Shown here piece after piece: positions 1-15,959 of a stretch of 64,000 nt of DNA (the stretch's first letter is position 1; every line of letters starts with the position of its first letter). Below the pieces are notes generated by a model. The model was not told the DNA's origin, made no database searches, and saw only the letters and a list, made by a program, of their open reading frames with translations. Source of the stretch: an uncultured Actinomycetes bacterium. Its GTDB lineage: Bacteria > Actinomycetota > Thermoleophilia > Gaiellales > JAICJC01. The stretch is from the NCBI GenBank assembly GCA_963757605.1, contig CAVWSF010000001.1:632349-696348 (forward strand), in the 5' to 3' direction. Made by a program: the position numbers and the translations under genes.

Positions 1-109
1 CGGTCATGGCTCTCCGATCGGGGTCCGCTAAGCGCCCGTCGACAGTCGTTCGGCGAAGTCCGCGGCCGCACCGGGTCGAGTCCCGGCACGAGGCGAGGCC
101 CGCTCACGT

Positions 110-822
110 TCAAAGCGTAGTCCCAGCGTGCTCGCATGAGCCCGCGTGGCGGGCGTCGCCCAAATGGCGCCGAATCCGGGTGCGCCGCTGGAAGACGATC
201 AGGCCGGCAAGCAGAAATGCGGCGGCCCGGGCGAGGCCGAGTGCGAGCTCGCCCCACAGAGCGGAGTGTCCGAAGGCGCCGCCGACGGCGAATTGGGTTG
301 GTCCGAAGGAGGGGAAGTACTCGAGCACCGGCCGGTTGGCGATGGGATTTCCGACCGGGTTCTGGAGGAAGGTGTCGGTGAGGCTTCCCATGATGATGAC
401 GAAGAAGCCCTCGAGGTCACCCTTGACCAGCACGCCGAGCAGGAGGCCGAGAGCGCCGTACTCGGCCGCGATGACCATGAACCCGGCCAGGACGGCGGCC
501 CAGCCGCTGACGCCTGGTCGCCAGAACGTGAGGAGCAGGACTGCGGCGTAGGCGGCAACACAGGTGGCGACGAGCATGGTCGCCAGGGCTTTGGCGGCGA
601 CCAGGAGCGCTTGGCGGTAACCGGCGAAGACCAGCCGCCGGTCGAACGGCAACGCTCGTGCCGTGTGGCCGCAAAGACGGCGAACCCGACGATCAGGGTC
701 AGAGAGTTCATGCCCGCCGTGATCAGGGAGAGCTCGCGGCCGTCGGCGTGCAGCATGACGCCGGTGGAGAAGAGCTTGAACTCGAGCACGACGTTATCAG
801 CAGATCGGACGAGACGTCGCAT
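110..822 (-). pseudogene. ABC-2-type permease-like membrane protein, frameshifted and probably N-terminally truncated
   Basis: The hydrophobic N-part (ORF 199..822, ...LTLIVGFAVFAATR) joins ORF 110..652 (RALPFDRRLVFAGYR...) by a single-base shift near 658; multiple TM segments. Confidence 0.55.
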
Positions 823-825
823 AGA

Positions 826-841
826 AACCGACCGGTCGGTT
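826..841. promoter_or_regulatory. Perfect 16-bp palindrome AACCGACCGGTCGGTT, putative TetR operator
   Basis: Perfect inverted repeat between divergent ORFs; 15/16 identical to the site at 2088-2103 next to the tetR start. Confidence 0.7.
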
Positions 842-845
842 AGAC

Positions 846-1037
846 TTGGCGAATGGACTACGGGATGACGATGTGACGGTCGACGCGGCCTCAGTGATCG
901 TCGGGCTGGTGATCATGGCGGGTGTCGCGTCGTACCTGGGAGCGCTGGTTGCGATCGTGCGTCCCGATCATCGAAACCCGGTCACCCGGCCGTTGATGGA
1001 CTGGATCGAGCACCACGCTGTAAGTGGGCCGCGTTAG
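846..1037 (+). CDS. Small single-TM membrane protein
   Basis: 63-aa ORF with a hydrophobic stretch (SVIVGLVIMAGVASYLGALVAIV); start uncertain. Confidence 0.5.
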   Translation: MANGLRDDDVTVDAASVIVGLVIMAGVASYLGALVAIVRPDHRNPVTRPLMDWIEHHAVSGPR

Positions 1038-1042
1038 CCGGC

Positions 1043-1459
1043 CTATCCGGCGAGCGCGAGCTGCGCCGCGAGCAGCCCCAGGTAGAGCACGGTGGCGGTG
1101 AACCCGCCGAGGGGCCAGGCGGCGGCGTTCGCGACTCGGTCGGCGATCACCGTCACGCCCAGGATGGAGGCGCTGACCGAGATGACATGCAGGCCGCCCC
1201 AGACGGCCGGCGGCTCAGAATCGATTCGGATTCGAGCGCGGAGGTCGCCGAATGCGACGATCCCGACCAACGCGAATCCGCCGACGCCACCGAGCATGAA
1301 GAGGAGGGCGTCGGCGCCTGTCGGCACGCCTCGTGCGTGGGTGAGGACGGCGCCGGACGTCCACACGGTCAGCGTGTAGCCGTAGGGGCCGATGCTCATG
1401 CTGGCGGCATGCCGTGCCGCGGCTCGGTACCGCGTCACCGGGTCGCCGCGGCTACGCAT
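1043..1459 (-). CDS. Hypothetical membrane protein (about 4 TM)
   Basis: ATG at 1459 just after the tetR stop; hydrophobic helices (PYGYTLTVWTSGAVL, LLFMLGGVGGFALVG, WPLGGFTATVLYL). Confidence 0.7.
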   Translation of the reverse strand: MRSRGDPVTRYRAAARHAASMSIGPYGYTLTVWTSGAVLTHARGVPTGADALLFMLGGVGGFALVGIVAFGDLRARIRIDSEPPAVWGGLHVISVSASILGVTVIADRVANAAAWPLGGFTATVLYLGLLAAQLALAG

Positions 1460-1464
1460 CGGGA

Positions 1465-2076
1465 TCAACCCGTATGCGACCGGTCGATGCCGGCCAGAAG
1501 GGAGTCCAACACGGAGCGGATGTTCGACCACCGGAACCCGGTCGGGTCGAGGGCGCGGTGGAGCATCAGACCGTCCGTCAGCGCGATCAGGATGGAGGCA
1601 AGCGCGTTGGCGCGGCGTTCCTCGATGGCGAGATCACCTGTGCGGATGCTGCGCACGATCCAGTCGCGCAAGACCGCTCGGCGGCGCTCTACGGTGTCGG
1701 CGAATTGATCGCGGACGACTGGGTCTGCGGCCAGCGCCGACCAGAGGTCGGCGCGAAGCTGCACTCTGCCGGGGTCGTCACCGACGCGGAGCATGGCCTG
1801 GGTGAATCGGCGCACCCGCTCCGCGCCCGAGAGCTCCTGCTCGACAAGCTCACCGCCTACCCGGTTCAGCGCGACGGTCTCCTCCTCGACAAGAGCCAGG
1901 AACAGGTCCTGCTTGCTGGCGAAGTAGCCGTAGAACGCGCCCTTGCTGACGCCGGCCTCGTCGCAGAGATCATCGACGCTGGTCGTGTGGTAGCCGTTGA
2001 GCGCCATTCGCCGCCAGGCCGCGTCGACCAGACGCTTCCGGCGGACGGAACGGGCCTGCTCGCTGATCCGTGGCAC
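1465..2076 (-). CDS. TetR/AcrR family transcriptional regulator
   Basis: GTG start; HTH motif GYHTTSVDDLCDEAGVSKGAFYGYFASKQDL. Confidence 0.92.
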   Translation of the reverse strand: MPRISEQARSVRRKRLVDAAWRRMALNGYHTTSVDDLCDEAGVSKGAFYGYFASKQDLFLALVEEETVALNRVGGELVEQELSGAERVRRFTQAMLRVGDDPGRVQLRADLWSALAADPVVRDQFADTVERRRAVLRDWIVRSIRTGDLAIEERRANALASILIALTDGLMLHRALDPTGFRWSNIRSVLDSLLAGIDRSHTG

Positions 2077-2087
2077 GCGCCTAGAAT

Positions 2088-2103
2088 AACCGACCAGTCG
2101 GTT
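2088..2103. promoter_or_regulatory. Palindrome AACCGACCAGTCGGTT, putative TetR operator in the divergent tetR/ctaG promoter
   Basis: Near-perfect inverted repeat 12 bp upstream of the tetR start, abutting a TATTCT -10-like hexamer. Confidence 0.72.
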
Positions 2104-2127
2104 TTTGTGTACGAGGGCGTTGCAACG

Positions 2128-3030
2128 ATGTGGGTGTGGACCTTCGATCCAGCTGAGCTGACGCCGGTCGTCCTGGCGGCGGCGCTCTATGCCCGTCGGG
2201 TCGCCACCCTTCGGCGCAGAGGCCATCCGCCCGCCTGGTGGAAGCCGGCATGCTTCGTCGGCGGTCTCACGGTCGCGACGCTCGCCGTCGTCTCGCCGAT
2301 CGACACGCTTGGCGAGGAGCGCTCGTTCACCGTTCACATGATCCAGCACCTCATGCTGGGCGACCTCGCACCGCTCCTCTGCGTGGCCGGGCTCTCCGGG
2401 CCGATTCTCCGCCCGGTGCTCGCGCTGCCGCTGATCGGGAGGCTGCGCGTCCTCACCCACCCGTTGCGTGCCCTCCCGATCTGGGCGTGCAATCTCGCCC
2501 TTTGGCACCTCCCCGGCGCGTACCAGCTCGCACTCAGAAACGACACCGTCCACGCTGTCGAGCACATGTGCTTTTTCGTCGGCGGCGCCTTGCTGTGGGC
2601 GGCGATCCTGGAACCGCTCCCAGGCCCGGCCTGGTTCGGATCCGGCGCGAAGGCGCTTTACATCCTCGCCGTCCGCGGCTTCGACACCCTGCTCGCCTTC
2701 GCGTTCGTGTGGTCGCAGACCGTCTTCTACCCCTACTACTCGCATGTGGCCCCACTGTGGGGGATGAGCCCGATCGAAGACCAGAATCTGGGCGGCATCG
2801 CGATGCTCGCCGAAGGCAGCATCGTCACCATCACCGCCTTTCTGTGGCTCCTGTGGCGATGGCTCTCAGACGGTGAGCTGACGACGGAGCTCGTCGAGGC
2901 GGGCATCCCCGAGCATCGCGCGCAACGCGCCGTCCGCTACGGGCGCGGGCCCGCACTCGCGAAGACGGTGCGCCGCTCCCAGGTCGGAGCGCCCGCCAGC
3001 GCGGTCCACCAGCCGGCGGGCCGGCGATGA
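2128..3030 (+). CDS. ctaG: Cytochrome c oxidase (caa3-type) assembly protein CtaG family
   Basis: Motifs SPIDTLG..FTVHMIQHLML, WHLP, HAVEH and DQNLGG; multi-TM. Confidence 0.85.
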   Translation: MWVWTFDPAELTPVVLAAALYARRVATLRRRGHPPAWWKPACFVGGLTVATLAVVSPIDTLGEERSFTVHMIQHLMLGDLAPLLCVAGLSGPILRPVLALPLIGRLRVLTHPLRALPIWACNLALWHLPGAYQLALRNDTVHAVEHMCFFVGGALLWAAILEPLPGPAWFGSGAKALYILAVRGFDTLLAFAFVWSQTVFYPYYSHVAPLWGMSPIEDQNLGGIAMLAEGSIVTITAFLWLLWRWLSDGELTTELVEAGIPEHRAQRAVRYGRGPALAKTVRRSQVGAPASAVHQPAGRR

Positions 3031-3815
3031 GTCGTGCCCCCGGACGGCCGCGGCCGCGAGTCCGGCCCCGGGCCGGGTGGCTCTTGATGGCGCTCGGGAT
3101 CGCGGTGAGCGCGGTCGGGATCGGGGTCGCCGCAACCCGACCGCCGTCGCGTGCCAGGCTTGCGATTGGCGCCGAGGTCTCGCCGCCGAGGCCCGTTCCG
3201 CGGATCCCGCTCGTCGGAGCCACGGGCGAACCGACGAGCCTCGCGCACTACCGGGGCCGTGTCGTCGTCTTGGCGCCGTTCCTCTCGCTGTGCTCGGAGC
3301 ACTGCCCGATCACCACCGGCGCATTCATGCAGGCGGCCCGCCGTGTCAGCGCCGCGGGTCGTGCTTCGCGGGTCGCCTTCATCGAGACGACCGTCGACCC
3401 GTGGCGCGACACCCCTCGGCGTCTTCGCGCATTTCAACGCCGGATCGGCGACCGAGGCGTGGTCATGCTCACGGGCACCGCGGCTCACCTGGAGGCGTTC
3501 TGGCGGTTCTTCGGCATCTGGTACAGGCGCGTCCCGGAGGGCAGGCCTGCCGCCATCGACTGGTGGACGCAGAGGCCGGAGCGCTTCGACGTCGAGCACA
3601 CCGACGCCGTGTTGATCATCGATCCCGCCGGCGCTTGGCGGATCGCCGTCCTCGGAATGGCACATCCGGACGGGCGCCTCGCACCCGAATTGCGGAAGCT
3701 GCTCGACGCCCGGGGCCTCCAGAACCTCCACCGGCCAAGCGAGCCGTGGACGGTGCCCGAGCTTCTTCAAGATATCGGCCACGTGCTCGGGCAGCCGATC
3801 GGACAGACGGACTAG
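3027..3815 (+). CDS. SCO1/SenC family copper chaperone
   Basis: N-terminal TM; CxxxC (CSEHCP), TVDPWRDTP, distal His (VEHTD); ATGA overlap with ctaG. Confidence 0.88.
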   Translation: MSRAPGRPRPRVRPRAGWLLMALGIAVSAVGIGVAATRPPSRARLAIGAEVSPPRPVPRIPLVGATGEPTSLAHYRGRVVVLAPFLSLCSEHCPITTGAFMQAARRVSAAGRASRVAFIETTVDPWRDTPRRLRAFQRRIGDRGVVMLTGTAAHLEAFWRFFGIWYRRVPEGRPAAIDWWTQRPERFDVEHTDAVLIIDPAGAWRIAVLGMAHPDGRLAPELRKLLDARGLQNLHRPSEPWTVPELLQDIGHVLGQPIGQTD

Positions 3816-3844
3816 CGATCCGTCCGAGAGGCGGCGGCAGTACC

Positions 3845-4303
3845 ATGGCCGCACCCCGACGGGCCGTCATGTCCCTTCGCGAGATGGATGCCGCAATCCG
3901 GCTTTCTGAGCAAGCGTTCCTCGACCAGGTTAGAGACGCGGCCGTGCTGCGAGCCGCACTGCAACAGTTCGACGCCGACACGGCGCGGGTGGTACGCCGA
4001 TGCCAGCTCACGCCGCAGCGCTACGTGCTGCTGCTCATGATCAAAGGTGCTCCTGACGACGGGCAGAACTCGACAGTCTCTGCGATCTCCCAGCGGTTGC
4101 GAATGCCCCACAACACGATCTCGGAGCTCGCTACGCGAGCCGTCGTCGCCGGCCTCGTCGAGCGCGAGCCGACACCAGAAGACCGTCGATCCACTCGCCT
4201 GTCGCTGACCGCTGAAGGGGATGAGCGCCTTCGCTGCGCCGTCTCGCAGCTCGAAGATCAGCGAGCCGCCTTACGCCGATCGCTTCAGCGAACGAGGCGG
4301 TAG
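3845..4303 (+). CDS. MarR family transcriptional regulator
   Basis: LTPQRYVLLL, wHTH and GLVEREPTPEDRRSTRLSLTAEG signature; alternative start at 3869. Confidence 0.85.
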   Translation: MAAPRRAVMSLREMDAAIRLSEQAFLDQVRDAAVLRAALQQFDADTARVVRRCQLTPQRYVLLLMIKGAPDDGQNSTVSAISQRLRMPHNTISELATRAVVAGLVEREPTPEDRRSTRLSLTAEGDERLRCAVSQLEDQRAALRRSLQRTRR

Positions 4304-4388
4304 AGGGCTCAATCCCGACACGTCCGGCGCGGAACACCATCCCGTGGGCGATCCCGCGGAAGGGCACACCTCGTCGCTGGCTGCTTCC

Positions 4389-4664
4389 CTACGACGGGTG
4401 GCGGCTGCGTTCGCCCACCGAAGCGATCGATGCCGCTTCGCCGGTGATCTCGCCCGCCCACCGGGACTTGGGATCGCTCACGTCGGCAGCGTCGATCCGT
4501 ATCGCCTTCGACCCGAAACGACCCTGGCGCAGAGCCATCGCCGAGCCGCACCGGCAGCACTTGAACGCTGGCTGTCCTTCCCATTCACCGAGACCGGCGT
4601 AGGCCTCGCTCCCAGGCTCCGTCGCGCCACGCTGGCCGCATGATGGGCATTTGACGACTGGCAT
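4389..4664 (-). CDS. Small putative zinc-ribbon protein
   Basis: Strong RBS (GAGGGAGG) before ATG 4664; CPSCG and CCRCG knuckles. Confidence 0.6.
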   Translation of the reverse strand: MPVVKCPSCGQRGATEPGSEAYAGLGEWEGQPAFKCCRCGSAMALRQGRFGSKAIRIDAADVSDPKSRWAGEITGEAASIASVGERSRHPS

Positions 4665-4959
4665 CCAACCTCCCTCGTTCCGGGTCGCAAAGGCGGAGAA
4701 CACGCGCCCTGCTGGCGTCCTGCCGGACAGATTCCGACGGACATCACGTCGGAGTCCGACAGGCACCGTATGTCGCAATCCGACGCGCATCAAGGACTCG
4801 GATTGGGATTGGGTATTAACGGACACCAGCCGGTGCGGCTCTTGCCAGCGACTTCGGAACGGTCGACGACGACGGATAAGGCCGGCGTCGAAGGCACTTG
4901 TGATCGCGTAGTGACCCAAGCGGCCTCCTCTCACGACTCGCCGAGCTGAAGCCTCTGGG

Positions 4960-5292
4960 TCAGCCACCCTTGGGCGGAAGCGTGCGAGCGTACGTCACCG
5001 CTTGACCGACCCACCGCTCGAGCGCCGCCCCGCGCAGTCCCGCCTGCTCGACATACACCATCGAATGCATCGGGCGACCGGTGAAGTCCATCGCAGCAAC
5101 ATGCGGCTTGGCGAGCGCCGCCGCGGCTCCCTCATCACCAAGCCGCAGCATCAAGCGGCCGCCAACGATGCCGGCGCACATGTTGCCGTGCAGGAGAAAG
5201 CAGAGCCCGCCGAACATCTTCTGCTCGCGGTAGGCCGGATCAGCTTGCAGCAGCTCGCGCACACGCTCGGCCAGAAGCTCGTCGTAGGCCAT
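4960..5292 (-). CDS. TfoX/Sxy N-terminal domain protein
   Basis: MAYDELLAERVR...KMFGGLCFLLHGNM...MDFTGRPM...LPPK pattern. Confidence 0.88.
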   Translation of the reverse strand: MAYDELLAERVRELLQADPAYREQKMFGGLCFLLHGNMCAGIVGGRLMLRLGDEGAAAALAKPHVAAMDFTGRPMHSMVYVEQAGLRGAALERWVGQAVTYARTLPPKGG

Positions 5293-5439
5293 GCCGAAAC
5301 CTTACGCTCTCCCCGACCATGTGCGGCTCGCGCTTGGCGGAGATCGCCCCTCCCAACGCATGGTCAACCGAATTTGGCTGCGGTCGCCCGCCGAAAACCA
5401 CAATCGGTTGAACGTCTTCTTGAACGGCGCGGGCCGTTG

Positions 5440-5541
5440 CTACTCGACTGTGACGGTCTTCGCCAGATTGCGCGGCTTGTCGACGTCGAGCCCGCGCCGC
5501 GTCGCGATCGCGTAGGCCAGCTGCTGGAGCGAGAGGACGGC
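5440..5541 (-). repeat. Displaced copy of the glmS 3' end (33 codons plus stop), att-like direct repeat
   Basis: 95/102 nt identical to 14136-14237; encodes [33 protein letters not shown]. Confidence 0.92.
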
Positions 5542-5599
5542 CGGCACCGTATCGGAGCACCCGCAGGAATCCGTCCGGGACTGCCGCCCGCGCGACGCT

Positions 5600-6073
5600 T
5601 CAGGCCTGACTCAAGCGAAGTCGCGTTCGACCGTTCGAGAGGGTTCGCGCGCACGCCTCCGCGAAGGGCGGCAGGCCCGTGGTGATTCGACCGACGAGCG
5701 ATCCGTGGAACCCGTCCTCCCAGAAGTGGCGCAGATCGACCTCGCCGTACATGAACGCCAGCTCGTGGACGGCGTCCGCTCCGCCGGTCAGGCGGTCGCT
5801 CGCCAGACTGGCGAACTCGTTCGGCCCGGCGTAGAAGAACATCAGCTCGCCTGGCTCCGGGCGCATCGTGCGGTTCTCGATCGGCGGTGGCTCGGGGAAC
5901 GGCGGCAGGAAGCAGAAGACCTCATGGCCGTCGAAGCAGGCGTGCGACGTGTGGGTTTCGAGTGGCGTGGAGAGCGCGGCGTAGATCGACGCGCACACCC
6001 GCGGGGCAGCGCGTTCATACAGCGTCGCTTCGGCCGTCACGTCCGCGTCGGGGAGCTCGATGCGAAGTCTCAT
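5600..6073 (-). CDS. DUF3830-like (cyclophilin-like fold) protein
   Basis: APRVC...[10 protein letters not shown]...[17 protein letters not shown] pattern; ATGA overlap with the upstream peptidase. Confidence 0.7.
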
Positions 6074-7209
6074 AGCCGGTCCCACATGTCGGTCGGCAGG
6101 CCATTCAGCACCTCAGCGCCGGACGCGCTGACCGCGATCATCTGCTCGATGATCACCGCACCTTCGTCGGCAAACGTGACGCCGGGCTCGATACAGAGCA
6201 CCATGCCCTCAAGCAGCGGCTGATCGGGGTGTTCCTTGGCGTTCGGCGCTTCGTGCTGCCCGGCGCCGTTCCCGTGGGGCATGAAGGCGTCCCACCAGTT
6301 GTCGCCGTACCCGGCGCGGGCGATGGCGCCCGCAGCGACGTCGCGGATCGCACCGACAGTGACCCCGGGCTGGACGGCGGCGATCGTCTCGTTCACCGCG
6401 GCCTGAACGGCCTCGAGCTTGTCCGCCTGGGCGGCGCTCGCGCCGCCCACGACGACGGTGCGGCACATGTCGCCGTGATACCCGTGCACCCGGGCACCGC
6501 AGTCCAGCACGGCGAACTCCCCGGCGGTGAGCGTGCGCGCGCCCGGCAAGAACGTTCCGAGTGCCGTGCGGGGGCCGCTGCCCATCTCGGTCACGAACGA
6601 CGGCTCGGCACCCGCGCGGCGGATGACCTCCTCGGCCGCAGCCGCCACGTCGATCTCCGCGGCGCCGTCACGCACCTCGGCGAGACCCGCCGCCATCGCC
6701 CGGTCCGAGATCTCGGAGGCGGCCCGCATCAGGTCGAGCTCGGCCGGGCTCTTCACCATCCGCAGGGCGGCGGTGACCTCGCCGGCGTCGGTGAGCGTCG
6801 CGTCGGGGAGGCGCTCGGCGAGCGTCAGGTAGACGGGGGCCGGGAAGTACCCGTAGCCGGCGATCCCCACCCGCGCCCCCGAGCCGCCGTGCTCGCGGAC
6901 CAGGTCGGCCAGGTCGGCCCCCATGTCCGGTGTGAGGCGCATGTCGTCCGCGTAGGCCTCCGCCTGCGCGCGCTCGACATCCCAGCCCGCGGTGGTCATC
7001 AGGACGACCGGACCCTCCCGTGAGACGAAGAGCGCCGCGGTCTCCTCCTCGACGCAGTACCAGCGGGCGAAGTAGCGCAGGTCCGCGGGCTGATAGTCGC
7101 GATGGGCGCCGTAGAGGACCACTGCGTCCAGGCCGTGGCGATCGAGCGCGTCGCGGAGCGCCGCGATCCGGCCGGCGTGCTCGGCGTCGGTGATGGGATT
7201 GGTGATCAT
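6070..7209 (-). CDS. M24 family Xaa-Pro peptidase/creatinase-like hydrolase
   Basis: RMVKSPAEL; metal ligands LDCG, YHGDMCRT, PHGNG, IEPG and IIEQ. Confidence 0.9.
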   Translation of the reverse strand: MITNPITDAEHAGRIAALRDALDRHGLDAVVLYGAHRDYQPADLRYFARWYCVEEETAALFVSREGPVVLMTTAGWDVERAQAEAYADDMRLTPDMGADLADLVREHGGSGARVGIAGYGYFPAPVYLTLAERLPDATLTDAGEVTAALRMVKSPAELDLMRAASEISDRAMAAGLAEVRDGAAEIDVAAAAEEVIRRAGAEPSFVTEMGSGPRTALGTFLPGARTLTAGEFAVLDCGARVHGYHGDMCRTVVVGGASAAQADKLEAVQAAVNETIAAVQPGVTVGAIRDVAAGAIARAGYGDNWWDAFMPHGNGAGQHEAPNAKEHPDQPLLEGMVLCIEPGVTFADEGAVIIEQMIAVSASGAEVLNGLPTDMWDRL

Positions 7210-7967
7210 GGCGCGGCAACCTCCGTCCGTGCGAGGTAGCGGTCGGCCAACTCGACCGCCTGGTCATGGGAGACGCTCGGCCCGTGCCCGCCGTGCAGCC
7301 GGCGGATGGGCAGGTCGCGGATCCGGGTGACGGACGCCGCGAAGTCGGCGCGGTTCGATTCCGGCAGGCCGTCCACGAGCGGGCCGTCGTAGAGCATGTC
7401 TCCGCTGAAGAAGATCCCGGTCGTCTCCTCGATGAGGCCGATGCCGCCGGGCGTGTGGCCGGGAAGATGCAGGACGGTGAACTCGCGGCTACCGATCGCG
7501 AGCCGATCGCCCTCCTCGACGAGGGCTGTCGCCGGCGCGGGCTCCAGCCAGTAGTCGTCAGGGTCGAACCCCGGGAACGGAGACCGCGCGAGCATGTAGG
7601 GCGGGAACGTGTAGCCGGAGGCCTCGGCCGCGCGCAGGTTCTCGGCCGGCCAGTCGCCGGGGCGGGTGCGGCCATGCACCCTCGCGCTGAGCACGTCCTG
7701 CTCGAGCCGGTGTGCGAGCCGTGTGTCGAACTCCCGGGCGCCGCCGCGATGGTCGTTGTGCGCGTGGGTCAGGACGAGCCTGACCGGCTGCCGCATCTCA
7801 GCTCCGAGCTCCGCCGCGATGCTGGCCAGGCCGAGCCCGCTGTCGACGAGGAGCGTCGCCTCCGAGCAGTCGACGATGAAGAAGTTCCCGCGGATGAACT
7901 CGGCGGCGTGCGGCTCCGTCGCGAGCGTCACGCCGTCGCCGACGTCCTCGGTCGCAAACCACGTCAC
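7206..7967 (-). CDS. MBL-fold metallo-hydrolase
   Basis: THAHNDH, GHTPG, SGDMLY and GGHG; GTG start overlapping the upstream stop. Confidence 0.88.
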   Translation of the reverse strand: MTWFATEDVGDGVTLATEPHAAEFIRGNFFIVDCSEATLLVDSGLGLASIAAELGAEMRQPVRLVLTHAHNDHRGGAREFDTRLAHRLEQDVLSARVHGRTRPGDWPAENLRAAEASGYTFPPYMLARSPFPGFDPDDYWLEPAPATALVEEGDRLAIGSREFTVLHLPGHTPGGIGLIEETTGIFFSGDMLYDGPLVDGLPESNRADFAASVTRIRDLPIRRLHGGHGPSVSHDQAVELADRYLARTEVAAP

Positions 7968-8731
7968 TCGTACCACTCGCTCGGAGCCCACCTCACCCGC
8001 TCGACGTCGGGGTCGTGGGTCGCGAGCAGGATCGCCGAGTGCTCGCGCTCGAGCGCCTCGATCTTCTCCCAGCTCGCCACCAGGTCGTCCGGGCTCCAGA
8101 GGATGCCCGGCAACAGCCGCTCGCGCATCTTCTCGATCGAGTACGTGGCATCGAACATGATGATCACGGTGTCGCGGTCGAGCGTCACCCGCACCGACTG
8201 ATGGCCGGCCGTGTGGCCGGGGGTCGGGAAGAGCACGATCCGCCCGTCACCGAACAGGTCGTGCTCGCCGCTCAGCGGCTGCCAGCTGTAGGCGCCCTCG
8301 AACTGATCCGGCATGTAGGCGTTGGCCTGATAGACCGGCGGATTGCGGGCGAACGCCAGCTCCCGCTCCTGGACGTAGATCTCGGCATGCCGGAAGAGCG
8401 GAAGCGCGGCGGCGTGATCGTGGTGGAGGTGCGACATGACGACCTTCGGGATCGCCGCCGGCTCGAGGCCGATCGTCGAGAGCAACGCCGCGATCGTGTC
8501 GCTCTCGTCCATCCGGAGATCGAACATGTCGCCCCACGGCCCGAGCACACCCATCGGGTCCGTCAGGATCTCGGGCGGGATCCCGGTGTCGAACAGGACC
8601 GGGCCCTGCGGGTGATCGACCACGTAGGCCGTCCACGGCTCGTACAGCTTGGTGCCGACGTCGGCATCGAGCGGATCCTGCAGAGCCCGGTCGGCGTAGT
8701 CGCCGCCGCACTTGAACGAGTACAGCTTCAC
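7964..8731 (-). CDS. N-acyl-homoserine lactonase (AiiA/AttM)-like MBL hydrolase
   Basis: SHLHHDH, TPGHTAGHQS, FDATY (cf. AiiA DASY) and ATHD. Confidence 0.82.
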   Translation of the reverse strand: MKLYSFKCGGDYADRALQDPLDADVGTKLYEPWTAYVVDHPQGPVLFDTGIPPEILTDPMGVLGPWGDMFDLRMDESDTIAALLSTIGLEPAAIPKVVMSHLHHDHAAALPLFRHAEIYVQERELAFARNPPVYQANAYMPDQFEGAYSWQPLSGEHDLFGDGRIVLFPTPGHTAGHQSVRVTLDRDTVIIMFDATYSIEKMRERLLPGILWSPDDLVASWEKIEALEREHSAILLATHDPDVERVRWAPSEWYE

Positions 8732-8783
8732 GTGAGTGCGTCCTTCCGTGGTGTGCGCGGTGGCTCGACGACAGCGCCGGCCG

Positions 8784-9731
8784 TCAGCCGTTCGACATCG
8801 TCCAGCCCTTGACCTTGCCGTTCTTGATGCTGAGGATCACCCCCCGGAGGATTCCGTGCGGATAGTCGCTCCCGGGGTTGATGCAGAGCGTCCGGCCGAG
8901 CTTGCACGCGCCGCGCGAGTCGTGGACGTGCCCGTGCAGGCCGACCAGGGGTTGCACGTGCTCGATGACGTTGCGGACGGCCGTGCTGCCGACCGGGATC
9001 GTCATCGGGGTGCCGCCGCGGGTGCGCACCCTGAAGTCGTCGGTGACGGCCGGGGCGATGTCGAGGCCGCTGTTGTACGGCGGGCAGTGGAGGTTGAACA
9101 GCGCGTGCTCGGGATCGCGGGCCTTCGCCGCGGCCGCCATGATCGACGCCTCGAGCGCGTCCTCGTTCTGTTCCCGGGGAGAGTTCCAGGGCGTCCGGTT
9201 CGACCATCCCCAGCTCACCACCTCGACGCCGTTCAGGTCGTAGACGTCGTCCTCGGCGAACCGCACCCATGACGACTCCCGCAGCGCCCGGGCGACCTCC
9301 GGGTCGTCGTCGTTTCCGAGGTTGATCACGCACTCGATGCCGAGCGGCTGAAGGCGCTCGGCCGCCAGGTCGACCCAGGCCCGCATCACGTCCAGGATCG
9401 CCTCGAGGAACCGAGCCTCGCGGTAGTCCTTGTCGGCGACCAGCCGCTCGCGCTCCTCGACCGTGAAGAACGCCGGGTACCCGCCGCTGGCCCGCGCTCT
9501 CCGGGCGGCTTCGTCGCGCGCCTCCTCGGTCTTCATGACGCGGGCCACGCCACCCTCGCTCATCTCCCACCCGTCGGGGTGGCGGACGATCGGCACGAGC
9601 TGCTTCCCGGTGATGTCGCCGCCCAGGATGATGGCGCGGCAGTCGTACGCGACGGCGGCATTCAGGAACTTGCGAAAGCAGGTCTCAGACCCATGGATAT
9701 CGGTGGCAAAGAAGATCCGCTGCTGTGCCAA
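8784..9731 (-). CDS. Icc-like metallophosphoesterase
   Basis: TDIHG, GGD, LGNDD, HCPP and HGHVH motifs. Confidence 0.88.
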   Translation of the reverse strand: MAQQRIFFATDIHGSETCFRKFLNAAVAYDCRAIILGGDITGKQLVPIVRHPDGWEMSEGGVARVMKTEEARDEAARRARASGGYPAFFTVEERERLVADKDYREARFLEAILDVMRAWVDLAAERLQPLGIECVINLGNDDDPEVARALRESSWVRFAEDDVYDLNGVEVVSWGWSNRTPWNSPREQNEDALEASIMAAAAKARDPEHALFNLHCPPYNSGLDIAPAVTDDFRVRTRGGTPMTIPVGSTAVRNVIEHVQPLVGLHGHVHDSRGACKLGRTLCINPGSDYPHGILRGVILSIKNGKVKGWTMSNG

Positions 9732-9734
9732 GCG

Positions 9735-11360
9735 TTACTCCGGTGGCAGCGCCTGCTGCGCGAGTGTCAGGCTGATCCCGCGGCGCTTGCTCACCGCGAA
9801 CGCCGCGAGCCAGATCGCCGTCAGCCCGGCGATCTCGATCGCCATCACCTCCACGGCGGTGCTCGTCTTCAGGCCCGCGAGCTCGCCCCAGTGCGTGAAC
9901 ATCGTGATGTAGATGAAGTAGGCCATGATGGCCGCGTCGATCGCGCCGACGATGCTGAGGAGCGGGATGCCTCCGACCCGCCGGTTGACCGGTGAGTCCT
10001 CGAACATCTTCCGGGCCGTGTAGGGAAACAGCACGGCCGCGATCCCGGTGCACATCCACACGAAGATCGCCATCAGCGCCACGATCGCGAACAGCAGCAC
10101 GATGTCGCTCGCCCAGTGATACACGGCGAGCAGCAGGTAGCCGACCGAGACGACGATCATGAACAGCGTCGAGAAGAGCGGCGTGTGCGTGCGCGGGCTG
10201 ACCTCGCCGAAGATCGGCGGCACGACCCGGTCGATCGCCCAGGCGAGGCTGTTCCGCGTCAGCATGAGATAGCTGGGAAGGATCGTCCCCGTGATCCCGG
10301 CCACGAATGACACACCCAGCAAGACCGCGAGCCACGAGTGCGGGTGCGAGATCGTGATCAGCGCGTAGAGCGCCGGCTGCGACGGGAACGGCCACACCTC
10401 GGGGTGGGCGAAGGTCACGTAGCCCGCGGCGCCGAGGAAGTCCGCGCCCATCACGTGCACCGCGAGGATGGCGATCAGCACGAGCAGTCCCGTCGCCAGG
10501 GCGGCGCCCGCCAGCATGGCCGGGAGCATCTTGCTTCTGGCCTGCCTGACCTCGCCGCCCCAATAGGTCGGGATGTAGCCGTAGCCGATCGCGACGCTCA
10601 GGATGATGAACGATGCGAAGAGCGCTCCGGTGTCCGCGTGGTTCGGGAAGACGCCGTCGCCATGGGCGGCGGCGACGATCTTGTGCACCGACCCGACTCG
10701 GTGGAAGTCGCGCACGAAGCCGCTCGGGCTCACCGTGAGCAGGCTGATGAGCGCCGCGACGGCTCCCACCAGGCCGACGATGAAGAGGCCGATCGCCCAG
10801 CGGGCGACGGCGCGGACGCTGAAGAGGCTGATCACGCCGGTGATCACGATCAGCGCGCCGGCGATCCACACCTGGCCCGCCTGCGACGTCACGTCGGACG
10901 TGTAGTTGTCCCAGCGAGAGTTGCCCGTGATGAACGCGAGCGACTCGAACATCGCCGGAAGCCCGAACTGCGGCACGGTCAGGGCGACGTTGCCCAGGCC
11001 GGCGATGAAGACGAGCGAGATGATCCCGTTGACGACGAACCCCGCGAGCGGATGCACGACGCGGCTCAGGAACAGGTAGTCGCCGCCCGACCGGGGCATC
11101 GCGCTCGAAAGCCAGCCGTAGGTGACGTAGTGCGGTACGCACAGCGCGAAGGTGAGGGCGAACGCAAGCGCGATGTTGGCGCCGGTGAACGTGCTCGGCA
11201 CCAGCGTCAGATACGTCACGCCGAGAAAGACCGAGATGTAACTCGCCGAGAGGACGACGTTGTCGGTGAGCGAGAGCTCACGTACCAGCCCGGTGGCCTG
11301 GCGGACGAAGAGGTGGTCGCCGCCGCCTGGGCTCGCTTCGATGGGCGGATCAAGACTCAC
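9735..11360 (-). CDS. APC family amino acid/amine permease
   Basis: FVRQATGLVRE, MPRSGGDY and AWAIDRVVP; about 12 TM. Confidence 0.9.
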   Translation of the reverse strand: MSLDPPIEASPGGGDHLFVRQATGLVRELSLTDNVVLSASYISVFLGVTYLTLVPSTFTGANIALAFALTFALCVPHYVTYGWLSSAMPRSGGDYLFLSRVVHPLAGFVVNGIISLVFIAGLGNVALTVPQFGLPAMFESLAFITGNSRWDNYTSDVTSQAGQVWIAGALIVITGVISLFSVRAVARWAIGLFIVGLVGAVAALISLLTVSPSGFVRDFHRVGSVHKIVAAAHGDGVFPNHADTGALFASFIILSVAIGYGYIPTYWGGEVRQARSKMLPAMLAGAALATGLLVLIAILAVHVMGADFLGAAGYVTFAHPEVWPFPSQPALYALITISHPHSWLAVLLGVSFVAGITGTILPSYLMLTRNSLAWAIDRVVPPIFGEVSPRTHTPLFSTLFMIVVSVGYLLLAVYHWASDIVLLFAIVALMAIFVWMCTGIAAVLFPYTARKMFEDSPVNRRVGGIPLLSIVGAIDAAIMAYFIYITMFTHWGELAGLKTSTAVEVMAIEIAGLTAIWLAAFAVSKRRGISLTLAQQALPPE

Positions 11361-11446
11361 CGTTGATCACTCCGGTTCGGTGACATCTACGGCTCCGATC
11401 GGCTCGGGGTGCGGGGCGCCGACCGTACCACCTGCCGGTGAGCACG

Positions 11447-11477
11447 TCAACAACAGGGTTGCGGAACAATTCAACAG
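11447..11477. promoter_or_regulatory. Candidate GntR-binding region (repeated CAACA/GAACA half-sites)
   Basis: TCAACAACAGGGTTGCGGAACAATTCAACAG, an AT-rich patch between the divergent permease and gntR. Confidence 0.35.
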
Positions 11478-11496
11478 GCGATATCCTCGACGCTGG

Positions 11497-12177
11497 ATGG
11501 CGGAGCCGACGATCCACCTTGCAAGCGTCAACGAGCAGGTGGTGTCGGTGCTCCGCGAGCGAATCCTCACGGGCCAGCTGCCACCGGGGGCGCCGCTTCC
11601 GGAGGTGGGCCTGTCACGCCAGTTCGGCGTCTCGCGCAACACGATCCGTGAGGCCGTGCGGGCGGTTGCCCGCGAGGGGCTCGTGAACGTCGACCGCAAC
11701 AAGACCGCGACGGTCGCCGAGCTGACCGACGCGGACGTCGCCGATCTCTACAAGGTGCGCAGGCTGCTCGAGCTGTCGGCGGTCGAGGATCTCAAGGCTG
11801 TTGCGGACAGCGACCTGGCCCACCTGAACGCGACCTGCGACCAGCTGGTCAGCGTCGTTCCCGCTGCCGCCGCGGTGGACGACTGGGCGGCGATCTGCGA
11901 CGTCGACCTCGAGTTCCACAAGAGCATCGTCGCCCTGCGCACGAGCCCGCGACTGGTGCGCACGTTCCAGAGCATCCGCTCGGAGCTGACGTTCTGCCTC
12001 ACGCTCATCACCGCCGAGGAGCGCCGCATGGGCCGAACGGATCGCCTCGTGAACGAGCACCGGGAGATCCGCGACGCCATCGTCGCGCGCGACTCGGCAT
12101 CGGCCGGCCGGCTGATCGGCGAGCACCTCGACCTGTACGAGGCGGAGACGCGCCGCTCGCTGGCGAACCGGCCGTGA
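11497..12177 (+). CDS. GntR family regulator (FadR/FCD type)
   Basis: LRERILTGQLPPG..LPE..LSRQFGVSRNTIREA; FCD motifs FH and EH. Confidence 0.92.
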   Translation: MAEPTIHLASVNEQVVSVLRERILTGQLPPGAPLPEVGLSRQFGVSRNTIREAVRAVAREGLVNVDRNKTATVAELTDADVADLYKVRRLLELSAVEDLKAVADSDLAHLNATCDQLVSVVPAAAAVDDWAAICDVDLEFHKSIVALRTSPRLVRTFQSIRSELTFCLTLITAEERRMGRTDRLVNEHREIRDAIVARDSASAGRLIGEHLDLYEAETRRSLANRP

Positions 12178-12228
12178 CGCGGTCAGGCCGCGGCGGCGCA
12201 GCTCGGACGCTCTGAGCCGTTCGAGGGA

Positions 12229-12611
12229 TCACGCGGCCGCGCGCATGAGCCGCCTGAGCTCACGCGGCATCCGGTCGTGGCCCTTGCGGATGAGCACGAG
12301 GTTCTTCTGCCCGACCGCGACGACTGCAACCGACGGAGGACGCCTCGGAGCTCGGCGAGCCGGATCGGCCCGCCGCCTTCTGCGGGGAGCTGCCCGCCCG
12401 TGTCGTCGCACGGCGGCATGAACGCCTTGCCAAGCATCCGCCCCGGCACCGGCGAGACCTTCACTGACGTGCCGAGGTAGATGTGACCATGGAAGCGCAC
12501 GAAGTAGGCGCACGATGCCGACCCGCCGGCCTGCATGCCGACATGGGAGGCGGAGCAGCCGGTCGCGGCGAGCACGGTGGTGAGGAGGAGGATCAGAAGG
12601 GCTCGTTGCAT
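12229..12611 (-). CDS. Lipoprotein, DUF6281-like (one -1 indel near 12339)
   Basis: Lipobox LAATGC; SASCAY...PPCDDT; the C-terminus continues in the 12229 frame (PPSVAVVAVG...). Confidence 0.55.
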
Positions 12612-12618
12612 AGCCCTC

Positions 12619-12645
12619 AGACGGCGCCGTTACCGGTTGGGTCCC
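12619..12645 (-). promoter_or_regulatory. Candidate ECF-sigma promoter GGGAC-N17-CGTCT
   Basis: The -10 CGTCT lies 7 nt before ATG 12611; resembles actinobacterial SigE-type promoters. Confidence 0.35.
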
Positions 12646-12700
12646 CTGACCTTGACACTCCGTCTGGCTCGGATGTCGCCGCTTGGTAGGGATTCCCCGC

Positions 12701-13022
12701 ATGTGGGTCTGGCTCAGCGTCATCGGCGCCCTTGGCATGGTCGCCGCTTCGTCATCATCGCCACGTACCCGATCCCTGACATCCCAGCGGCTGGTGCTCG
12801 TCCGGCGAACGCCCGGGGCACTACACCGTCCGGTCCGTCACCGAGACCGTGCTGTATCTGGACATCGCCGCCGCCGCGGCCGTGGTCGTGGCCGCCGGTG
12901 CGCTCACCGGCCGGCTCGGGTGGGGCGTTGTCGTGTCGGTGCCGACGGCGCTTCCGGTCGGCGCGTTCTTCCTGATCACCGCGTTCTTCTACGCGGGCGG
13001 GATCGACTGCGCCGTCTACTAG
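12701..13022 (+). CDS. Small membrane protein (two apparent -1 indels near 12748 and 12788)
   Basis: Reconstructed MWVWLSVIGALGMVA/FVIIATYPIPDIP/GWCSS...TVLYLDIAAAAAVVVAAGALTGRLGWGVVVSVPTALPVGAFFLITAFFYAGGIDCAVY*. Confidence 0.45.
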
Positions 13023-13039
13023 ACATACGCTTCCCGGCG

Positions 13040-13517
13040 ATGGGCCGCATCATCACGGCGGTGACGCTGGTCTCGCTCGCCGTGGCGGGCTGCCTCGGGT
13101 CGCAGAGCGAGCCGAGCGGGAAGCTGCGCGTGGTCGTGACGTTCGGGACCGAGCGGGTGTCCGACGGCTCACGCCAGTACACGCTGACGTGCGGCCCGGC
13201 CGGCGGGACGATGCCCGACCGGGAGGCGGCGTGCGGCGCGCTTGCCGACTATCTGAAGCACCGGAACGACCCCGGCCGGTTTCTGCAGCGGATTCTCGGC
13301 CACCGTCCCCAGGACGCTCGTCGACGGATCCTTTGACCGCCACCGGCTGCAGCTCACCCTCTCGAGCATCTCATGGTGCGGCGTTTCCGACGACCTGATG
13401 CGCGACTTCTGGGTGCTCTCGACGTTCCCGTGCTCCACGCCCGTCACGCACTACCCGAACCAGCATCCGTATTCGAAGGGCATCGCGCCGGAGCGGTGCC
13501 TGCGCGGACGTGGATAG
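13040..13517 (+). CDS. Lipoprotein with subtilisin-inhibitor (SSI)-like domain (one +1 indel near 13280)
   Basis: Lipobox VAGC; YTLTCGPAGGTMPDREAACGAL matches the SSI LTCxPxGGTHPxxxxAC pattern; open frame from 13281 to TAG 13517. Confidence 0.6.
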
Positions 13518-13541
13518 CTCGGTACTGTAGCCGAGCACGGG

Positions 13542-14117
13542 ATGCGCGAGATCGTGATGGAGCCCGCCCCGCGGACGGCCCGGATGGTCTACGGAATGAT
13601 CGCGGTGGTGACGATCCTGCTGACGGCGGGCGGTGCGCAGGAGAACGGCGGATGGCAGCGCGCCGCGATCGTGTTGTTCGGCGGCTTGGTGAGCGCGGTG
13701 TCGGCCACGGCCTCCACTCGCGGCCGCCGCGTCGCACTGCGGATCGACGATCACGACCTGCACTACTCCGGGTGGTTCCGCACACTGCAGGTTCCGTTGT
13801 CGGCCCTGACCATGATCGGCTGGATGGTCGTCCCACCCATGGGCTACCACATCGGAACCGGCTACATGCTCGTGTTCCGCGTCCGTGGCCGCCGACTGCC
13901 ATACCTGAGCGGCTCGGCGAGGTCGGTCGCCGATCGGCTGGGCACGTCTCAGCATGTCGTCATGCGACAGGTGGAGCTGGCAGCGACCGACCACGAGGTG
14001 CGGTACCGCGGACCAATCCCGGATATCTCGCCGAGCCTGTACGGCTGGATCCTGGTGTTTGCGGCTGCGGGGCTCCCCATCGGCGCAGTGGTGATCTACT
14101 ACGCGGTCGCCCGATGA
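13542..14117 (+). CDS. Hypothetical membrane protein
   Basis: 191 aa; two N-terminal TMs, a beta-rich middle and a C-terminal TM. Confidence 0.65.
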   Translation: MREIVMEPAPRTARMVYGMIAVVTILLTAGGAQENGGWQRAAIVLFGGLVSAVSATASTRGRRVALRIDDHDLHYSGWFRTLQVPLSALTMIGWMVVPPMGYHIGTGYMLVFRVRGRRLPYLSGSARSVADRLGTSQHVVMRQVELAATDHEVRYRGPIPDISPSLYGWILVFAAAGLPIGAVVIYYAVAR

Positions 14118-14135
14118 CGCAGCGAACGCGCGCCG

Positions 14136-15959
14136 CTACTCGACCGTGACGGTCTTGGCGAGGTTGCGCGGCTTGTCGACGTCGAGCCCGCGCCGCGTCG
14201 CGATCGCGTAGGCGAGCTGCTGGAGCGGGAGGACCGCGAGCGCCGCCTGGAGCTCCGGCTCCGTCCGCGGCAGGTAGAGGACGTGCTCGGCCAGCTCTTT
14301 GATCGCCTCGTTGCCTTCGGTGGCGACGGCGATCACGTGGGCGCCGCGTGCACGCACCTCCGCAACGTTCGAGAGCACCTTCTCGTAGACGTGCGAGTCG
14401 GTTGCGATGACGACCACCGGGGTCGCCTCGTCGAGGAGCGCGATCGGGCCGTGCTTCATCTCGCCGGCCGCATAGGCGTCGGTCGCGATGTAGGAGATCT
14501 CCTTCAGCTTGAGCGCGCCCTCGAGCGCGATCGGAAGGCCCATGTTGCGGCCCAGGTAGAGGAAGAACTCGTTCTGGAAGTAGCGGTCGGCGATCGGCTC
14601 GACCACGTCGCGGCGATCGAGCGTCCGCCGGGCCAGATCGGGCAGGTCGCGCACCTGCTCGAGGAGCGCGTCCGCCCGGGTGGCGTCGATCGTGCCGCGG
14701 ATCAGGCCCAGCTTGAGCGCGAGTAGGTACATGAGCGTGACCTGGGCCGTGAATGTCTTGGTCGCCGCCACGCCGATCTCGAGCCCCGCGCGCGTGTAGA
14801 GGACCGAGTCGCACTCGCGCGTCATCTGCGAGCCCATCACGTTCGTCACCGCGAGGACGTGGGCGCCGCGCGCCCGCGCCTCCTTCATGGCCGCCAGCGT
14901 GTCGATGGTCTCGCCCGACTGGGCGACGGCGATCACGAGCGTCCGCTCGTCGATGACCGCGTGCCGGTAGCGCCACTCGCTCGCGATGTCCGACTCCGAC
15001 GGGATCCGGGCCCACTCCTCGAGCAGGTACCGCCCGATCAGGCCGGCGTGGTAGGACGTGCCGCAGGCCAGGAACACGACCCGGGAGAGGTCGCGGATCT
15101 CGTGCTCGGAGAGCTCGAGGCCGTCGAGCTGGAGCTCGCCGTGGTAGAGCCGCTCGCCGATCGTCTCGGCGATGGCGTCGGGCTGCTCCTCGATCTCCTT
15201 CAGCATGAACGTCTCGTAGCCCTGCTTCTCGGCCGCCTCCTCGTCCCAGTCGACCTCGTCCACGCCGCGCTCGATCACGGCGCCGTCGCCGGAGAGGAAC
15301 GTGGCGCCGCCCGGCCGCGCGACCACGATCTCGTCGTCGTGGACGTACTGCACCTTGCGCGTCGAGCTCAGGAACGCGGGGATCGCCGACGCCATGAACA
15401 TCTCGCCGTCGCCCACCCCGACCACGAGCGGGCAGCCGCGGCGCGCGGCGACCAGCACGCCCGGGCTGTCGCGATGGGCGGCGGCGAACGCGAAGTGGCC
15501 GTCGAGGCGCGTGTACGCCGCCCGCACCGCCTCGACCAGGTCGCCGGAGTAGCAGTCCTCGATCAGGTGGGCGATGACCTCCGAGTCGGTGTCGGAGTGG
15601 TACTCGTGGCCGGCGTCCGAGAGCTCCCGCCGCAGCGTCGCGTAGTTCTCGATGATGCCGTTGTGGACGACGGTGACGCCCGAGCCCTCGCACGCCTCGA
15701 TCGGGTGCGCGTTGGACTCGATCACGCCGCCGTGGGTGGCCCAGCGCGTGTGCGCGAGCCCCATCGTGGCCGGGTGGGCCGACGTGCCCACCGCCTCGCG
15801 CAGCGCCGCCACCTTGCCGACCCGGCGGACGATGTCGACCTGGCCGTTCATGAGGCAGATCCCGGCCGAGTCGTAGCCGCGGTACTCGAGCCGCTCGAGG
15901 CCGTGGAGGAGGAGCTCCTTGCAGGGCCGCGACCCCACGTATCCGACGATCCCGCACAT
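14136..15959 (-). CDS. glmS: Glutamine--fructose-6-phosphate transaminase
   Basis: MCGIVG, LEYRGYDSAG, HTRWATHG, QSGET and [11 protein letters not shown]. Confidence 0.99.
   Translation of the reverse strand: MCGIVGYVGSRPCKELLLHGLERLEYRGYDSAGICLMNGQVDIVRRVGKVAALREAVGTSAHPATMGLAHTRWATHGGVIESNAHPIEACEGSGVTVVHNGIIENYATLRRELSDAGHEYHSDTDSEVIAHLIEDCYSGDLVEAVRAAYTRLDGHFAFAAAHRDSPGVLVAARRGCPLVVGVGDGEMFMASAIPAFLSSTRKVQYVHDDEIVVARPGGATFLSGDGAVIERGVDEVDWDEEAAEKQGYETFMLKEIEEQPDAIAETIGERLYHGELQLDGLELSEHEIRDLSRVVFLACGTSYHAGLIGRYLLEEWARIPSESDIASEWRYRHAVIDERTLVIAVAQSGETIDTLAAMKEARARGAHVLAVTNVMGSQMTRECDSVLYTRAGLEIGVAATKTFTAQVTLMYLLALKLGLIRGTIDATRADALLEQVRDLPDLARRTLDRRDVVEPIADRYFQNEFFLYLGRNMGLPIALEGALKLKEISYIATDAYAAGEMKHGPIALLDEATPVVVIATDSHVYEKVLSNVAEVRARGAHVIAVATEGNEAIKELAEHVLYLPRTEPELQAALAVLPLQQLAYAIATRRGLDVDKPRNLAKTVTVE

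Follow-up and report, generated by a model that had tools for sequence, protein, structure and literature searches.

A duplicated glmS 3' end in a Gaiellales genome as the probable seam of a single-crossover gene capture

The 64,000-nt stretch analysed here (the window; contig CAVWSF010000001.1, positions 632,349 to 696,348, forward strand) belongs to an uncultured Gaiellales bacterium whose assembly, GCA_963757605.1, comprises 4.05 Mb in 5 contigs with the window on the contig that we call C1. It carries, 8.7 kb behind the live glmS gene, an orphan copy of the last 102 nt of that gene. We propose, with a probability of roughly 0.65, that this repeat is a seam left by a single homologous crossover at the glmS end, which captured DNA from a relative without a dedicated integrase. 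Both the anchors and the lengths of such repeats vary among strains, and this fits single-crossover capture at a hypervariable interval between glmS and fmnR better than it fits a mobile element that lost its integrase. The features at issue are as follows.

14136..15959, minus strand: live glmS (607 aa; TIGR01135 at 771 bits, above cut-off), whose last 102 nt are tail B
5440..5541, minus strand: orphan glmS tail, or tail A (33 codons plus TAG; edge possibly reaching 5549-5577), from the repeat comparison
5468..5517, minus strand: 50-nt run identical in both tails, from the mismatch positions; a weak candidate crossover interval
5542..5599, minus strand: seam from the DUF3830 stop to the orphan tail; a related strain departs from the window at 5587

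Direct comparison bears out the repeat as an earlier note had described it, in that 5440-5541 repeats 14136-14237 in the same orientation with seven mismatches in 102 nt, six of them synonymous third-position changes and one a CCG to TCG change (Pro to Ser), with about 8.6 kb between the copies. The pair forms the strongest repeat within positions 1-25000 (111 nt, 91%), and in a blastn search of the own genome it reaches an E value of about 1e-38 against 1.5e-5 for the second-best match. The 5' edge of tail A is fuzzy, and a gapped extension to 5577 (139 nt, 86%) was dropped as non-significant on its own (shuffle p 0.29). Four of the seven differences are common alleles among 33 live tails of the family, whereas the other three (Pro to Ser, AAC to AAT and ACG to ACA, all C to T or G to A) occur in none of them; for this reason tail A is best read as a once-functional allele that has since decayed. 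The ACA codon of tail A is also present in the orphan tail of a metagenomic locus, L084. Judged from these alleles, the difference between the copies is part allele divergence and part decay. Tail B is ordinary and not recoded, differing from the glmS end of relative G008 at 2 of 102 nt. The view of the earlier note that both copies derive from functional glmS ends, the copy at 5440 being the orphan, is thus supported by the aligned sequences. The 50-nt identical run was not relied on as a crossover mark, a rough hand estimate giving about 0.07 by chance.

The interval behind glmS was compared in 40 relatives' loci, each followed for up to 20 kb. In the closest clade the conserved neighbour behind glmS is fmnR-arsP-arsR, and the distance of fmnR from the glmS stop ranges widely: 18 nt (G009), 109 nt (G024), 1722 nt (G008), 3290 nt (G026), 5712 nt (G002), 5785 nt (G023), 6459 and 13749 nt (G012, with two copies) and 17322 nt in the window genome. 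The earlier note had looked to the tfoX side as the neighbour at an empty site; instead, it is fmnR-arsP that is conserved as the neighbour, and it lies 17.3 kb beyond the stop. One finding that the note had named as refuting its view, namely that relatives carry the same genes after glmS with no empty site, is borne out by half, since the same genes do follow glmS in relatives and near-empty sites (18 nt in G009, 109 nt in G024) also exist. The anchors are well shared, the last 1 kb of glmS being 90-93% identical among the nine closest loci and fmnR 79-89%. As a separate observation, neither a clear start codon nor a -10-like element ahead of it can be recognised for the own-genome fmnR (C1:628599-629162, just left of the window), and the same is true in G009 and G026. 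The other relatives' fmnR keep TACGGT and a start, and the fmnR 5' end appears as the eroded right edge of the hotspot.

The DNA between the two tails is not peculiar to the window. The core of cluster C, from gntR to the DUF3830 gene, spans 6.6 kb and is resident behind glmS in relatives. Specifically, in G013 it follows glmS directly at 91.8% nucleotide identity, with no repeat and with fmnR lost, and in G012 it lies at 88.7% identity between two fmnR copies of 622 nt that are 89% alike (L033:7408-8029 and 14702-15323); G023 retains about 20 nt of the DUF3830 end ahead of fmnR. Similarly, module X, the segment behind tail A, stands 1.76 kb behind the live glmS of G016 at 87-90% nucleotide identity (L039), and pieces of segment Y, which separates cluster C from glmS, recur behind glmS in G008, G026, G023 and G002. 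The window therefore reads as two versions of the interval placed head to tail, Y plus C and then X, with a glmS fragment between them. Four-fold-site distances of the cluster C genes to G012 and G013 are 0.15-0.36, compared with 0.27 for glmS and 0.29-0.47 for right-side core genes. Because these distances equal those of core genes, cluster C is clade-resident and not foreign, and the earlier note's discrete foreign island does not stand; the variable tail lengths tell against it as well. In line with this, the GC content of the inter-copy stretch (67-73%) is like that of the flanks.

Nineteen DUF3830 loci from metagenome contigs extend the comparison to other strains, and six close ones (at least 91% aa identity) reach beyond the DUF3830 stop. 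After this stop, L081 and L093 run straight into fmnR, L080 does so after a short gap, and L082 continues into other DNA. L084 (430-630) holds a mosaic seam in which the cluster end is followed by a 35-nt fmnR piece, glmS from -190, an internal deletion and the last 42 nt of glmS; by strict match, its joints overlap by 4 nt and 1 nt. Additionally, in run X1 a cluster 96-97% alike departs from the window at 5587 into a loose end with about 22 nt of glmS tail and one mismatch (read by eye), while runs X7, X8 and X9 gave no coverage of the seam. Orphan-tail lengths thus vary across strains (about 22, 102 and 190 nt), alongside the 622-nt fmnR repeat of G012. The strains thus share no single fixed crossover position, though erosion may have caused the length differences.

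The single-crossover reading is preferred because the anchors (glmS and fmnR) and the lengths (about 22, 102, 190 and 622 nt) differ, and because the joints fuse a right-hand to a left-hand core gene. In such an event, a linear fragment from a close relative, bearing a glmS end and the genes behind it, would have entered the cell, been trimmed, and then either been circularised or joined illegitimately at one end. A RecA-type crossover within the shared gene end would leave glmS intact and displace the resident tail and its flank by 8.7 kb, after which the orphan would decay. The crossover and its direction are inferred. Among the three routes of entry that the earlier note offered, homology-driven capture is accordingly the best fit, and site-specific replacement of the 3' end is not borne out.

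Experimental precedent comes from E. coli, where single crossover of a trimmed and recircularised donor left 56 of 60 recombinants with part of the homologous gene end duplicated; in the 14 that were sequenced the duplications measured 109-950 bp (PMC3240628). This process and homology-facilitated illegitimate recombination (HFIR; PMC3240628, PMC6382021) resemble the window in having one homologous gene-end arm, a partial duplication of variable extent, joints with little or no homology, and no integrase. They differ in that the window is a natural fixed state with diverged copies, and in that classical HFIR usually deletes recipient DNA. Hotspots free of mobile genetic elements (MGEs) offer a second likeness, namely high turnover between conserved neighbours with no integrase or transposase; half of the hotspots lack evidence of mobile elements, and flanking core genes recombine often (PMC5635113). 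Unlike such MGE-free hotspots, the window stacks two haplotypes with leftover anchors instead of showing a clean double-crossover replacement, and our comparison is across species of one genus. comEC and dprA were found in the own genome; these are common genes and lend weak support. The comEC match (C1:411372-412049) holds one TAG stop and may be broken or carry a sequencing error.

Several observations weigh against single-crossover capture. No tail repeat near glmS was found in any of 30 other genomes of the genus (28 with a match). Second glmS-tail matches in genus genomes are 72-80% paralog-like and lie elsewhere; G024 carries a full copy on each of two contigs. When 685,552 downstream bases (the 40 relative loci and our own) were scanned with a 24-nt profile, only tail A rose above background. 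L096 holds a weak glmS-tail remnant only (16/17 nt, E 0.16). A sliding-identity test for chimerism along glmS gave no clear breakpoint. The 102-nt copy of the window is slightly under the experimental range of 109-950 bp, the differing tail lengths could equally be erosion of one old fixed-site event, and fixed-site inserts with replacement tails do occur at glmS in a sister family. Finally, a microhomology of 3-10 bp at the illegitimate joint is usual in HFIR, though unnecessary for ligated circles, and no significant microhomology exists at the window's own seam. Specifically, the seam (5542-5599) agrees with the fmnR upstream region over 8 nt and with glmS likewise over 8 nt, but neither match reaches significance (p 0.19-0.30), and an origin of the seam from the fmnR promoter was dropped on the same ground.

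The strongest competing explanation, though an unlikely one, is a relic of a site-specific integrative element, whose tyrosine or serine integrase was lost or acted in trans at a fixed glmS crossover; the element would have supplied tail B and displaced tail A, and later deletions would have altered the tail lengths. Replacement-tail elements, among them phage 21 and e14 in icd as well as tRNA islands, bring a copy of the gene part that they displace (PMC12540744), and the window shares this architecture: an intact gene, cargo, and a displaced, diverged direct 3' fragment. The window departs from them in having no integrase, no fixed crossover, clade-resident cargo and an alternative fmnR anchor (G012). 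In three or four strains an orphan tail does occur, each time at the same end of the cluster. Tail B, however, is not recoded (2 mismatches to G008), the same cargo has fmnR on both sides in G012 and is unbracketed in G013, cargo divergence equals core divergence, and the seam has no arm-like repeats, no stable hairpin (fold z -0.73 and 1.21) and no palindrome. The cargo without repeat in G013 and the fmnR repeat in G012 likewise speak against the earlier note's discrete element entering by site-specific 3'-end replacement. The explanation retains some weight because erosion could mask one fixed site.

The search for enzymes in cis upheld the earlier note's statement that no recombinase lies between the copies, as the 30 open reading frames (ORFs) of 110-20184 include no integrase, resolvase or transposase family. 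The own genome has six tyrosine-recombinase matches and one weak resolvase match, all far from the window. In relatives, Pfam scanning covered 125 proteins of the intervals at 35 loci, made up of 57 of the 103 family representatives and 68 of the 73 singletons within 8 kb. It detected no integrase, resolvase or transposase; the gene caller favours host codon use, so atypical genes could escape it. No excision circle or empty-site joint appeared among the assembled-contig matches listed. Recombinase genes do follow glmS in five of nine viral contigs, which would favour an integrative element; these contigs, however, show no tail duplication, and their short matches lie at contig edges. The five are L071, L078, L079, L072 and L073, with a tyrosine integrase (three) or a large serine recombinase (two) right behind glmS. 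Viral contigs were rejected as evidence for attP sites in the glmS tail on account of these edge positions.

An integrative origin also draws support from the sister family f3, in which 5 of 326 genomes, from four genera, carry an insert of 54-95 nt at a single position, some 38 nt upstream of the glmS stop. Each insert consists of a recoded, AT-richer replacement tail, then in three cases a palindrome, and then the displaced native tail; the palindrome of L108 has a DNA fold z of -8.5, and no enzyme is adjacent to the inserts. These are fixed-site replacements of the kind that the earlier note envisaged, and they differ from the window repeat in length, recoding and constancy.

L102: f3 recoded-tail insert
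L103: f3 recoded-tail insert
L104: f3 recoded-tail insert
L108, about 1420-1545: f3 recoded-tail insert
L109: f3 recoded-tail insert

It is improbable that two haplotypes first formed a larger tandem merodiploid (glmM-glmS-C-fmnR-arsP twice) which deletions later collapsed. Leftovers would then be scraps of either glmS or fmnR, with glmS no special anchor, and L084, which retains scraps of both flanking core genes and an internal deletion, and G012, with its mirror order, agree with this; pneumococcal transformation yields merodiploids (PMC3784515). Such a history requires extra steps, and self-comparison of the window's locus reveals no larger duplicated core remnants. Its end state would be nearly the same as that of single-crossover capture.

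A strain-chimeric assembly join is largely refuted. The assembly is metagenome-derived and each half of the window exists separately in relatives, which would allow such a join. Yet a 331-nt contig of the public run X6 (depth 4.4) covers 5357-5687, and hence the whole tail and both junctions, with zero differences, which argues against a join and disposes of the earlier note's own caveat on this point; run X6 is possibly the source sample and hence not independent biology. The three tail A changes absent from every live allele examined and the related junction in run X1 point the same way. Least probable of all is that GG-ended elements targeting glmS, one decayed left end of which lies directly behind tail A, created the repeat, for instance by aberrant insertion, as the 5 bp that these elements duplicate lie outside coding sequence, neither tail B (11 mismatches) nor the seam has an element end beside it, and the end motif has been found on the 8.6-kb block in no strain so far.

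These GG-ended elements do not explain the 102-nt repeat, and they form a subject of their own. Their layout is the glmS stop, 3 nt, a 5-mer, GGCGCGG and a doubled TTCAAGAAC-like 9-mer.

5404..5436, minus strand: 5-mer at +4..+8 and decayed left end from +9 onward with a doubled 9-mer, behind tail A (3 mismatches in 16 nt to the G016 left end)
L039, +9 to +1727 from the glmS stop: cargo element
L045, +10 to +1673: cargo element
L065, +9 to +862: cargo element
L044, L053, L064: left ends
L049, L050: right ends

Left ends (at most 3 mismatches to the G016 end) stand at +9/+10 in 5 of 35 family loci, including G016, and additionally behind tail A, where no right end was found; the background is 3.5e-5. 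Of 401 genomes of the order, 4 have the inverted right end with a 14-8-14 palindrome ahead of it, always behind glmS. An exact 5-bp duplication (CTGCC, TCTCG, GAGCG) flanks all three elements with two intact ends, and the 5-mer is exact in none of the five with one decayed end; the element of G028 has one extra G on the left. Two elements have a second left end in tandem, and the cargo includes an AbiEi/AbiEii pair. An interpretation of the post-stop motif as arm sites of an integrase was given up in view of the matching right ends and the 5-bp duplications. The end behind tail A indicates that tail A once was, or acted as, a targeted glmS end. As a further observation, genes for resistance to arsenic and chromate, along with toxin-antitoxin genes of the HipA or AbiEii type, are recurrent cargo behind glmS in this genus (L043, L047, L049, L044, L039).

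No transposase or recombinase was found for these elements in a Pfam scan of their cargo proteins, and a search for an autonomous element returned none in viral contigs and none in plasmids. Class-wide, 16-mer matches appear in 26 of 301 genomes, none beside glmS, and 26 tyrosine-recombinase loci were without such ends, five hits being coding or single matches. TniQ was found in 0 of 65 genomes, with its control silent, and TnsD in 0 of 5. The Tn3 transposase PF01526 was found in 0 of 31 genus genomes and as one fragment in 65 family genomes. Tn3-family elements have 38-bp inverted repeats starting with GGGG, and the GG-ended elements are unlike them in that their inverted ends span only about 16 nt and that the Tn3 transposase is essentially absent (one fragment in 65).

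The ends of Tn7 are TGT...ACA. At attTn7, Tn7 produces a 5-bp duplication about 20 bp after the glmS stop (PMC2918618), and the GG-ended elements resemble it in their fixed position and orientation behind this stop, the 5-bp duplication and tandem stacking. They differ in the duplication at +4..+8, the GG ends, the 9-mer repeats and the 14-8-14 palindrome, and no tns genes were found with them. Tn7 does not account for the 102-nt repeat either, because it does not duplicate coding sequence. Tentatively, and at somewhat less than even odds, we suggest that an undescribed transposon family with non-TGT ends targets the 3' end of glmS in this Gaiellales genus. Its enzyme, acting in trans, would read the glmS tail and insert GG-ended cargo 3 nt beyond the stop, duplicating 5 bp and stacking the elements in tandem, orphan tails would serve as extra landing pads, and a second system, in the sister family, would swap in a recoded glmS tail at one fixed site with a hairpin. 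In the literature outside subscription journals, no description of glmS-tail duplicates or of GG-ended glmS elements was found.

The genes between and around the two tails are listed below.

1..4875, unstranded: module X (Zn-ribbon ORF, marR, sco, ctaG, tetR, membrane ORFs)
4960..5292, minus strand: tfoX-N gene behind the orphan tail (PF04993)
5600..6073, minus strand: DUF3830 gene, last of cluster C (PF12903)
6070..7209, minus strand: M24 peptidase, Xaa-Pro/creatinase-like (PF00557, PF01321)
7206..7991, minus strand: metallo-beta-lactamase-fold hydrolase (PF00753)
7964..8731, minus strand: lactonase-like metallo-hydrolase, AttM/AiiA-like, under family cut-offs
8784..9731, minus strand: metallophosphoesterase-like protein (weak PF12850/PF14582, under cut-off)
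9735..11360, minus strand: APC-family amino-acid permease (PF13520)
11497..12177, plus strand: GntR/FCD regulator, first of cluster C (PF00392, PF07729)
12183..14117, unstranded: segment Y (DUF6281, SSI-like small protein, 191-aa membrane ORF)

From its gene families, cluster C is likely an uptake and catabolism unit. Module X extends leftward beyond the window as far as fmnR; within it, a 32-nt inverted repeat pair (820-851 and 2078-2109) flanks tetR and a membrane gene and likely represents TetR operators. No tRNA, tmRNA or Rfam family was found within the window. Further right, 23338-25000 is matched at 87% nucleotide identity by a paralog on contig C3 (431757-433431); this is probably a gene for an ABC substrate-binding protein and sits between rplM-side genes and an adenylate-cyclase-like ATPase gene.

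The window represents a natural case of additive, integrase-free gene gain, in which a leftover anchor shows the growth of a hotspot, and it warns that a diverged gene-tail repeat alone does not mark an integrative element. glmS is the standard safe harbour for Tn7 tools, and two sets of enzyme-less elements reach it with a non-Tn7 geometry. If these readings are true, either the GG-ended family or the f3 recoded-tail system would reach the attTn7 safe harbour by a route independent of Tn7, and the enzymes of these elements, once found, could give a site-specific insertion system for actinobacteria.

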